Source of the DNA: a virus
Lineage: Duplodnaviria; Heunggongvirae; Uroviricota; Caudoviricetes
DNA length: 64,000 nucleotides
Reading direction: 5' to 3' (one strand)
IMG/VR virus record: IMGVR_UViG_2778260994_000001
The translations under genes were made by a program, and so were the position numbers. The notes under the pieces were generated by a model, which was given only the letters and a program-made list of their open reading frames with translations, ran no database searches and was not told the origin of the DNA. Each line of letters starts with the position of its first letter. Position 1 is the stretch's first letter. Shown piece by piece: positions 30,821-31,346 of this stretch.

Positions 30821-30905
30821 ACAACGGTAAGGGTACTTCGTAGGGATTCGAACCCTCTGCCAAGCTCGGCGATCTCCGACGTCGCAAAATACCCTTACCT
30901 GTTGT
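30821..30905 (-). other. tRNA-like fragment inside a long imperfect hairpin (not a complete tRNA)
   Basis: 15-bp inverted repeat ACAACGGTAAGGGTA / TACCCTTACCTGTTGTG enclosing a T-arm-like GGGTTCGAATCCC; no matching 5' acceptor strand found. Confidence 0.4.
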
Positions 30906-30907
30906 GC

Positions 30908-30983
30908 TGGTGCCGATTAACGGACTCGAACCGCTGACATCCTGCTTACAAGGCAGGCGCTCTACCAACTGAGCTAAACCGGC
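30908..30983 (-). tRNA. tRNA-Thr (anticodon UGU)
   Basis: GCCGGTTTAGCTCAGTTGGTAGAGCGCCTGCCTTGTAAGCAGG...GGTTCGAGTCCGTTAATCGGCACCA. Confidence 0.85.
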
Positions 30984-30985
30984 AT

Positions 30986-31061
30986 TGGCGATGGTGGATG
31001 GATTTGAACCATCGACCCGTTGATTAACAGTCAACCGCTCTAACCGCTGAGCTACACCATC
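30986..31061 (-). tRNA. tRNA-Asn (anticodon GUU)
   Basis: GATGGTGTAGCTCAGCGGTTAGAGCGGTTGACTGTTAATCAACGG...GGTTCAAATCCATCCACCATCGCCA. Confidence 0.9.
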
Positions 31062-31330
31062 ACTTGCCGGGTACGTCTCCGGCGAGGGCTTCCACCTCCG
31101 TATGCTTTTCGGCGCACCGCGCCCTGGCTGCAATTCGGTAACAGGGGATGCATAACCCTGGCTTCCAGCGTGATTAGCGCTTTCAGCATGACGGGATATA
31201 CCCGTAAATTCGTGGAACTGTACCCAAAGTGCTGTTAAGCACCGCTGTTACGCTGAAAAGAAGACGCAACAGGAAAGGACGCTGACCAACAGATGGCCCC
31301 TTCTCGTTCATCTGGTTAATCACACCAGCG

Positions 31331-31346
31331 CCCTTACCTGTTGTGC
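31331..31346. repeat. 16-bp direct repeat CCCTTACCTGTTGTGC; second copy at 30892-30907
   Basis: Exact 16/16 identity; the two copies bracket the tRNA-Thr/tRNA-Asn pair. Confidence 0.6.

Follow-up and report, generated by a model that had tools for sequence, protein, structure and literature searches.

Does a 16-bp sequence that occurs twice, without a single difference, around two phage tRNA genes mark the scar of a recombination event, or is it a working part of an RNA? The sequence in question (CCCTTACCTGTTGTGC) lies at 30892-30907 and at 31331-31346 of the window, by which we mean the whole 64,000-nucleotide stretch of DNA in IMG/VR virus record IMGVR_UViG_2778260994_000001, and the tRNA genes between the two copies are those for tRNA-Thr and tRNA-Asn. 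The window belongs to a P1/P7-like phage and is 96-97% identical to P7 and P1 in the 1.5 kb around the repeat. An earlier reading made from the sequence only had suggested either a footprint of tRNA-mediated recombination or a processing element. We think it fairly probable that the two copies are arms of paralogous hairpins, designated A and B, which lie at the boundaries of exchangeable cassettes and serve both as joints for recombination and as putative processing and insulating sites, RNase III being the enzyme most likely to cut them.

The repeat was found to be exact at both sites, as the sequence-only reading had stated, and chance can be dismissed as its origin, since shuffling gave an expectation of 0.02 matches to the 16-mer and none of 100 shuffled sequences reached two. 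No further match with up to two mismatches was found in the 64-kb window. When the annotation of P1 is transferred by alignment, the repeat region falls within the untranslated leader, approximately 2.4 kb long and transcribed from the minus strand, of the C1-controlled ban operon. The upstream copy (31331-31346, minus strand), an exact match which reads GCACAACAGGUAAGGG in the RNA, forms the 5' arm of hairpin A in the predicted fold. The downstream copy (30892-30907, minus strand) forms the 5' arm of hairpin B, where it is paired with 30820-30833, and it starts one nucleotide past the CCA of tRNA-Thr, so that the earlier remark that this copy abuts the tRNA-Thr 3' end is borne out, with the CCA end on the minus strand. 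The repeats do bracket the tRNA pair, as had been claimed, but they do not flank it closely: the second copy is 270 nt upstream of tRNA-Asn, and the 439-bp segment between the copies also holds the rest of hairpin A and a 190-nt spacer.

Hairpin B (30812-30917, minus strand; stem 30820-30907) has a predicted folding energy of -42.7 kcal/mol (z = -5.5). It had been recognized before as a 15-bp hairpin, and while the hairpin stands, the length does not: on the transcribed minus strand the stem reaches about 24 bp, the additional pairs being G-U, which appear as C-A mismatches on the plus strand. Hairpin A (31250-31356, minus strand; arms at approximately 31265-31285 and 31325-31346) folds with -50.5 kcal/mol and a z score of -5.2, and its orthologues in SJ46 and D6 carry a compensatory change from CACAAC/GUUGCG to CAUAAC/GUUACG. 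Two more hairpins of the same kind lie downstream in the leader. Hairpin C (30572-30691, minus strand; arms 30584-30606 and 30661-30683) was identified by repeat finding, folding and a covariance model, R1, and is preceded by an apparent decayed tRNA-Thr 3' end (CCGUAACCGGCAC), while hairpin D (30272-30409, minus strand; stem 30287-30399) starts one nucleotide past the CCA of tRNA-Ser. The four paralogous hairpins separate a dicF-like RNA, the tRNA-Asn and tRNA-Thr genes, the tRNA-Ser gene and an STnc100-like RNA from one another. They share a consensus stem of 21 bp, with compensatory changes among the four paralogs at 10 of the 21 pairs. Model R1 was built from these four window hairpins, all of which, as members of its training set, score between 70 and 106 bits (90.6 for A and 70.9 for B), and an R1 search of the 64-kb window gave no match besides A to D. 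A candidate fifth copy, an inverted repeat at 24286-24357 with the arms CACAACGGTGAGG and CTTTTACCGTTATGG, was rejected: it has no R1 match, lies inside coding sequence at the junction of two plus-strand open reading frames (ORFs), and is probably a chance likeness to the family arms.

Across the copies collected from other genomes (see below) the element is an imperfect hairpin of 70-130 nt with a stem of about 21-25 bp, one bulge or mismatch and a variable interior, in which a T-loop-like mini-hairpin is often found. The consensus of the stem is CACAAC, a bulged A and GGUAAGRGCAUU on the 5' side and AGUGCUCUUWCC, GUUGUG on the 3' side. The bulged A that follows CACAAC either stands alone, or is paired with an extra U (as in the A type), or is lost together with it (as in the C and D types), and one position of the stem is a conserved non-canonical pair (U-U, A-G or A-A). 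In order to measure covariation, 49 distinct copies were aligned by their arms from both ends, and a linker stood in for the variable interior. Pairing at the 25 proposed pairs held in 86.8% of cases, compared with 35-51% when the partners were slid by one to three columns, and changes on both sides were seen at 14 of them. The covariation score of 0.338 was reached by none of 500 shuffles (0.185 when shuffled, and 0.09-0.12 with slid partners). In 44 of 58 unique copies, or about 13 of 14 distinct types, the fold is more stable for the transcribed strand than for its complement, and the hairpin is always oriented as the flanking genes are.

In related loci the family 5' arm comes directly after 79 of 86 tRNA-Thr genes and all 16 tRNA-Ser genes. 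We considered whether the arms might form a processing stalk around a tRNA and rejected this, as no tRNA is enclosed by an arm pair in the related loci; taken together, the placement of the 5' arm right after tRNAs and the lack of any enclosed tRNA imply that the element is a marker of the 3' end of a tRNA cluster. At other sites it comes a few nucleotides after a terminator, or after a small stem-loop. On the 3' side of the hairpins there is either a conserved GGUGAAUG followed by a small covarying stem-loop (GCGCA-GGCUGA-UGCGC), or one of several other conserved modules.

Recombination between the hairpin copies

The sequence-only reading had proposed that related genomes be compared to see whether the tRNA pair comes and goes precisely at the repeat boundaries, and one contig (L021, IMG/VR, 98.9 kb) does lack the pair exactly at the repeat. 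This contig is collinear with the window between dmt and the 16-mer of hairpin A, past which it runs into the interior and the 3' arm belonging to the hairpin that otherwise follows tRNA-Thr. Aligned with P7, it gives two segments that overlap by 17 nt, corresponding to the repeat, and it lacks 422 bp in which both tRNAs lie. An extra 439 bp is carried by plasmids that match the contig at 100% identity in the flanks, and because they keep the segment, the allele of the contig is a deletion between direct repeats; an assembly error is a less likely source. These comparisons suggest that the tRNA-less allele is derived and rare in the present sample. The allele was found with a P7-type hairpin interior, and a deletion junction with the window-type interior of hairpin B had no exact match in IMG/VR. 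Thus the indel expected of a recombination footprint exists, but a tRNA-mediated insertion is not what it records, the repeats being arms of dispersed hairpins that are also found without tRNAs, for example after the lambda terminator tR'.

Other alleles show joins of the same kind. Many P1-like genomes are of the RCS47 type, with five hairpins in the order A, B, E, C, D'. In the type to which the window and P1 belong, B is joined to the 3' flank of E, and in the P7 type the 5' arm of B is joined to the interior of E. SJ46 has a hybrid C/D' hairpin and no tRNA-Ser cassette, with the crossover in a 20-nt interior segment common to C and D'. At least 27 orders of tRNAs (Asn, Arg, Tyr, Thr and Ser) and hairpin types occur among approximately 73 P1-like leaders. 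The joins occur wherever copies share sequence, which is consistent with ordinary homologous recombination between dispersed repeats and not with a site-specific system. Near-identical repeats thus stand at the borders of the variable segments, and the breakpoints of the variants lie within the repeats, in the tRNA-less contig, in the P7, P1 and RCS47 alleles and in the SJ46 hybrid. The hairpins are direct repeats that share 16-25 identical nucleotides, and homologous recombination between them deletes, duplicates or swaps cassettes. The mosaicism is not limited to P1-like phages: lambda 44,866-44,930 matches the interior of hairpin D at 97% identity, and a module that follows hairpin B is common to Sashavirus, SSU5-like plasmids and a P22-like N leader.

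A different rearrangement was seen in contig L070 (10385-10397) and in Salmonella plasmid NZ_CP030183.1, where a deletion of 113 bp between the tRNAs, via a 13-nt overlap, has left a truncated tRNA-Thr/tRNA-Asn chimera. It shows one possible origin of orphan tRNA fragments.

The interior of hairpin B and the neighboring RNA modules

Hairpin B encloses a T-arm-like sequence (GGGTTCGAATCCC, 30843-30855), as had been reported before. This sequence is part of a larger tRNA-like core (30834-30891, minus strand), delimited by alignment to phage tRNAs and by compensatory changes. An acceptor-like helix of 7 bp pairs 5'-UAUUUUG (30891-30885) with CGAAGUA-3' (30840-34) and includes two G-U pairs; a D-arm-like stem-loop, (G)CGA-CGUCGGAGA-UCG(C), at 30869-30885 has the GG of a D loop; a linker of 12 nt replaces the anticodon arm; and AGGG-UUCGAAU-CCCU at 30842-30856 resembles a T arm. 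The claim that the acceptor-like strand had no 5' partner therefore fails, for the partner exists through G-U pairs and compensatory changes are seen in the homologues of other phages. The core can be aligned with the phage's own tRNA-Thr and tRNA-Asn over the D arm, remnants of the anticodon arm and the T arm. The same core lies within family hairpins of phage BUCT554 and of two lambdoid contigs (L083 and L014), in which the D- and T-like parts do not vary and compensation is seen in the acceptor pairs (UUG/CGA, GCG/CGC, GGG/CCC).

The core is not recognized as a tRNA by standard models. ARAGORN called only tRNAs for Met, Ser, Thr and Asn in the window; Rfam model RF00005 gave no match to 30800-30915 even at E <= 10; and the best match of the core to a tRNA-type Rfam family was tRNA-Sec, with 14.6 bits against a gathering score of 47. 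The features expected of a tRNA-derived element, namely an acceptor-like helix, a D-arm-like part and a UUCGAAU T arm in the order in which they occur in a tRNA, are nevertheless present, and the interior of hairpin B is a tRNA-derived tRNA-like fold that lacks an anticodon arm. T-loop-like mini-hairpins occur also inside hairpin C, the P1 variant of D and several lambdoid types, and because the B core and these mini-hairpins recur in the interiors of other members, the hairpin family as a whole looks tRNA-derived. Similar folds that lack an anticodon arm and retain acceptor-, D- and T-like parts are found in mascRNA/menRNA, in the tRNA-like domain of transfer-messenger RNA (tmRNA) and in YrlA. 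The mascRNA-menRNA family was the best non-tRNA Rfam match of the B core, far below threshold at 14.9 bits against a gathering score of 42.5, and the YrlA and tmRNA models gave no match to the hairpin. In contrast to these RNAs, the B core has no CCA or amino-acid acceptor end, and its acceptor helix runs into a 16-bp extension.

On the 3' side of hairpin B lies a conserved module (30767-30823, minus strand) that consists of a boxA-like AGCUCUUA (30803-30810), 7 nt, and a stem-loop, CCAGAAGAUAAGCAUCUGG (30777-30795). Sashavirus and SSU5-like Klebsiella phage-plasmids have it too, as does the P22-like phage SPN9CC, where it lies 40 nt upstream of N, and its boxA-like part is variable in the homologues. 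We rejected it as a true nut site, since in SPN9CC it is not repeated at nutR, the boxB of which is P22-like. Beyond hairpin D there is an STnc100/PasD-like RNA (30170-30290, minus strand; Rfam RF02076) that ends in a terminator-like hairpin and a U tract; its match to the STnc100 model, at 37.8 bits over model positions 31-147 of 206, does not reach the gathering score, which is 47. This RNA has a homologue in the dicF-dicB spacer of the Qin prophage of E. coli K-12, and its 5' closing stem overlaps the 3' arm of hairpin D, such that both compete for a GCGGUG segment. STnc100 is related to PasD, and the Pas small RNAs (sRNAs) end in terminators (Zhu, Shabalina and Storz 2026), which rules them out as the identity of the hairpins.

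The order of features along the transcript is Pban, the dicF-like RNA, A, tRNA-Asn, tRNA-Thr, B, the boxA-like module, C, tRNA-Ser, D, the STnc100-like RNA, ORFs, tRNA-Ile and ban. In P1 it is Pban and operator, a 'dicF-like region', tRNA-Asn, tRNA-Thr, approximately 0.7 kb without minus-strand genes, tciABC, tRNA-Ile and ban. The transcription unit begins at the Pban promoter with its bivalent C1 operator (31715-31742, minus strand; a palindrome, mapped from the P1 annotation), next to the end of the dmt methyltransferase gene at 31737. The first RNA of the operon is the dicF-like region (31517-31618, minus strand), placed by alignment to the P1 annotation and by a terminator scan, which also gave it a strong intrinsic terminator of its own at 31527-31553 (stem 31534-31553, followed by U7). 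As this terminator lies ahead of the array, the tRNAs and ban depend on terminator read-through, and no sigma-70-like promoter was found in 28900-31800, where 3.3 were expected. We know of no antitermination factor for the ban operon. The tRNA genes, all on the minus strand and called by ARAGORN and Rfam, are tRNA-Asn(GUU) at 30986-31061; tRNA-Thr(UGU) at 30908-30983, the last of its cluster, with hairpin B directly after it; tRNA-Ser(UGA) at 30400-30486, with hairpin D directly after it; and tRNA-Met/Ile(CAU) at 28989-29064. The tRNA-Ser(UGA) gene is extra with respect to P1, and its cassette is missing from P1 and SJ46. The ban gene itself, of the DnaB family, occupies 27339-28709.

Two P1 ORFs, upl and plp, run antisense over hairpins B and C and the tRNA-Thr 3' end (30560-30937, plus strand, in the window). 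The plp frame is shortened here to 81 amino acids (30560-30805) and has no Pfam match, and the cassette indels of the relatives would break it; upl and plp are probably not real genes. The position of P1 tciA, tciB and tciC is occupied in the window by a gene for an SPFH/Band-7 domain protein (275 amino acids; 29092-29919, minus strand) preceded by an ORF of 78 amino acids (29900-30136, minus strand), and the same pair is found in phage Ro157c2YLVW, where the larger one is annotated as a 'putative serine protease'. In plasmids NZ_CP037905.1 and NZ_CP148475.1 a TnpB-family (IS200/IS605-type) element is inserted in the leader upstream of tRNA-Asn.

Distribution in other phages and genomes

Model R1 finds homologues of the hairpins in every P1-like relative and in unrelated phages, including Sashavirus (Sasha, 57 bits), the Uetakevirus BUCT554 (47.9 bits), the SSU5-like Klebsiella phage-plasmid pJN2-26 (37-42 bits) and the lambdoid phiNP (34.7 bits). 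Three copies are present in pJN2-26, two of them directly after tRNA-Asn and tRNA-Ser, and in phage Cyrano a family hairpin follows tRNA-Ser. Lambda itself has a member at 44,776-44,877 (47.3 bits; E = 7e-11 over the whole genome), directly after tR', the terminator of the 6S RNA. It overlaps the annotated 'orf-64', and the 65 nt that follow it are those that are 97% identical to the interior of hairpin D.

A scan of IMG/VR with the 16-mer gave at least 120 stretches, and a second scan with the downstream module gave 84, most of which were lambdoid contigs with the hairpin 4-6 nt past an intrinsic terminator. In the lambdoid flanks that were sampled, the Q antiterminator was encoded by 5 of 8 upstream ORFs and a phage lysozyme by 7 of 10 downstream ORFs; the lambdoid hairpins thus have gene Q on one side and the lysis genes on the other, and are oriented as both are. 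With one genome taken per species, the motif with a complete hairpin was present in approximately 30 Enterobacterales species. In E. coli genomes 638 of 653 places were on plasmids, and the element is nearly confined to phages and phage-plasmids. About 24 identical copies of the lambda late leader were found on very short contigs of approximately 1x coverage in species-representative genomes of unrelated taxa (Pseudomonas, Bradyrhizobium, Enterococcus, Paenibacillus, metagenome-assembled genomes and others; contigs L218, L221, L231, L233, L235, L241, L243 and about 17 more), and these are almost certainly contamination of the assemblies with lambda control DNA.

The Qin prophage has no hairpin beside dicF of K-12. 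It has a weak, short member (14.6 bits, E = 0.03) between cspB and essQ, in the position of a late leader (L134 8875-8957, minus strand, corresponding to E. coli K-12 1,641,151-1,641,233). An IsrJ-family RNA scoring 59-61 bits, above the gathering score, shares a short stretch of at least about 90 nt with the post-hairpin module in several lambdoid contigs (L149 28-104, L162 7-83 and L183 1037-1113); it probably lies just upstream of the hairpin and may be the source of the terminator ahead of it.

At the gathering score no Rfam 15 family covers the hairpins in the window, at ten other loci or in a close-up scan, and the window hairpins had only sub-threshold matches to miRNA-type families (mir-465, 26 bits; mir-1271, 25 bits). 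The hairpin is not annotated in the P1, P7, lambda and RefSeq plasmid records examined, and text searches of the literature for the motif sequences and for the P1 tRNAs and ban returned nothing relevant. As far as Rfam 15, the annotated records and these text searches show, the hairpins were not described earlier as a family.

Likely function and alternative explanations

The processing element that had been offered as an alternative to a recombination footprint is plausible, given a structure that is conserved, covaries and lies on the sense strand, and processing by RNase III seems the likeliest role at the RNA level. A long RNA duplex of this kind would act as a processing and insulating site, most likely as a substrate of RNase III. 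The cut would free a tRNA 3' end that is otherwise locked in the stem, and it would separate the neighboring stable RNAs and mRNAs of an operon that is read through terminators. With a duplex that starts at the CCA, exonucleases would be kept from trimming the 3' ends of tRNA-Thr and tRNA-Ser, which seems to call for an endonucleolytic cut. The leaders that carry the hairpins are expressed only by read-through, after tR' in the lambdoid phages and after the dicF-like terminator in the ban leader. The stems are intramolecular duplexes of 21-25 bp that covary, and RNase III takes duplexes of at least 20 bp, or about two helical turns. RNase III sites have been reported in the lambda late leader, according to the title of Daniels et al. 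(1988, Virology 167:568) as it is given in PMC7547250, and the family hairpin is present in the centroid fold of that leader.

Several points weigh against this interpretation. Cleavage by RNase III in P1-like phages is a prediction only. The identity of the lambda late-leader sites with the family hairpin is likewise presumed. When the whole lambda leader is folded to minimum energy, the hairpin has to compete with other pairings, and the known RNase III hairpins of lambda, in the N leader and at sib, are not members of the family. The covariation figures come from related sequences, which also supplied the structure that was tested. Conservation of the arm sequence goes far beyond what RNase III would need, which hints at another ligand or at recent horizontal spread. 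Hairpins A and C follow no functional tRNA, and release of a tRNA 3' end therefore cannot be the sole role. On the side of recombination, the deletion of the tRNA pair is known from one contig of a draft assembly.

Among known systems, the family is best described as a variant of phage RNase III-type processing hairpins and of recombination linkers such as promoter early stem-loops (PeSLs). With the RNase III hairpins of phages (T7 R1-R5, and the lambda N leader, sib and late-leader sites) and the stalks of rRNA operons by the spacer tRNAs, it shares a long (>20 bp) imperfect duplex placed between functional RNAs and oriented with transcription, and it has a member in the lambda late leader, where the title cited above places such sites. 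It differs from them in that its arms are conserved in sequence across distant phages, its interior is often tRNA-like, it abuts the CCA of tRNAs, and its cleavage is predicted. The PeSLs of T4-type phages and the module boundary or linker sequences of lambdoid phages are reportedly short conserved repeats that flank small mobile cassettes (Arbiol et al. 2010; Clark et al. 2001). Like these, the family provides repeats at the borders of cassettes, as substrates for homologous recombination in a hyperplastic region that has here produced the many leader architectures and the hybrid hairpins. Unlike the PeSLs, its unit carries no promoter (the leader has no promoter-like site, as stated above), its cargo consists of tRNA and sRNA genes and not of ORFs, and its stems are much longer and covary.

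Readings at the level of DNA fit the data less well than those at the level of RNA, given that the strands are asymmetric, target duplications are missing and the crossover points are scattered. That the hairpin is a mobile palindrome, a non-autonomous element like a miniature inverted-repeat transposable element (MITE) or a palindrome-associated transposable element (PATE) that inserts by terminators and tRNA 3' ends and whose RNA structure is incidental, is distinctly unlikely in our judgment. Like MITEs and palindromic repeats such as ERIC/IRU and Correia elements, it is about 100 nt long, multicopy and transcribed, with conserved terminal inverted repeats and a variable interior, and it occurs in unrelated phage groups beside terminators and tRNA ends, where certain insertion sequences and group II introns are known to insert. 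RNase III cleaves Correia elements. The downstream module UAACUYAAUUCCCGCUUGCGGG, moreover, exists both with and without a preceding hairpin, in genomic contexts that differ and do not amount to an isogenic empty site. However, dozens of contexts gave no target-site duplication at the ends and no clean filled and empty pair with exact hairpin boundaries; the orientation is always that of transcription, with G-U pairs that favor the sense strand; the conserved 3' flank of GGUGAAUG and a small stem-loop makes the unit asymmetric; chromosomes nearly lack it, as the plasmid share in E. coli shows; and crossovers in shared sequence explain all of the observed rearrangements. An insertion of the tRNA-Asn/tRNA-Thr segment by recombination at a tRNA gene, with the 16-bp repeats as a duplicated target or att-like junctions, seems most improbable. 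It would account for direct repeats that bracket the tRNA pair, for the one genome that lacks the segment exactly at the repeat and for the tRNA-like fragment that adjoins one copy, yet both copies are arms of a hairpin family found in many places without tRNAs, the bracketed 439 bp take in hairpin A sequence and spacer as well as tRNAs, the closest relatives of the contig without the segment carry it, which makes the absence a derived deletion, and the SJ46 and D6 copies differ at 2 of 16 positions with compensation in the opposite arm, as structural constraint and not target duplication would have it. We give hardly any credence to an integron-like system in which a tyrosine recombinase acts on an attC-like folded site (CACAAC...GUUGUG resembling RYYYAAC...GTTRRRY) at the end of each cassette. 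The array does resemble one of cassettes, each unit having a hairpin at its 3' end, and imperfect palindromes of 70-130 nt with conserved ends, a variable center and a conserved extrahelical A recall attC sites (57-141 nt), which have extrahelical bases too; the ends (G)CACAAC ... GUUGUG(G/A), however, fit the attC core at only 5-6 of 7 positions, the crossovers at three junctions lie at different positions (with the SJ46 join in an interior and the 113-bp deletion between tRNAs), the host phages have no recombinase in common and no integron integrase context, and the element has sense-strand features of an RNA.

A very unlikely reading at the RNA level is that of a transcription termination or antitermination element, in which UGCUCUUW of the 3' arm would be a boxA-like site for NusB/NusE, followed by the GU-rich GUUGUGGUG, and the hairpin would regulate its exposure and so assist RNA polymerase in passing through a long, untranslated and Rho-sensitive leader. 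The 3' arm consensus, GUGCUCUU(A/U)CC, is identical over 8 nt to the rrn boxA core UGCUCUUU and the lambda nutR sequence GCUCUUAC, the elements occur only in leaders of operons controlled by read-through, and a second boxA-like module with a stem-loop (30777-30810) comes after hairpin B. Against this, the boxA-like strand is base-paired in the hairpin, and the core is present in the consensus and in D, but the corresponding stretch is CCCUUAC in B, GUUCUCA in C and GUCCUUU in A; the module that also occurs in the N leader of SPN9CC is not the boxB of that phage and has no boxA-like part there, and the resemblance was noticed post hoc. It is also conceivable, though we think it unlikely, that the hairpins are a hitherto unrecognized, widespread class of tRNA-descended phage RNA 'punctuation', with tRNA-like cores set on extended acceptor stems, which host enzymes that process tRNA and double-stranded RNA (RNase III, and for the B type possibly RNase P, just 3' of the 16-mer) would read so as to cut antiterminated leaders into tRNAs, sRNAs and mRNAs, and which would also be the joints of an integron-like array of exchangeable tRNA and sRNA cargo, possibly for counter-defence, in P1-like, SSU5-like and lambdoid phages.

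Seen as cassette-boundary hairpins, these elements allow a part of P1 whose annotation consists of two doubtful antisense ORFs, upl and plp, to be reread as an ordered array of non-coding RNA cassettes, and as joints they explain why tRNA content differs so widely from one P1-like phage-plasmid to another, a group that commonly carries resistance genes in E. coli and Salmonella. The link between this array and the lambda late leader supplies a prototype that is testable with standard genetics. Should the hairpins prove to be processing sites, they would define how read-through transcripts give up their phage tRNAs and prophage sRNAs (DicF-like and STnc100/PasD-like); should they serve mainly as recombination joints, they would represent the mechanism by which temperate phages trade tRNA and sRNA cargo.

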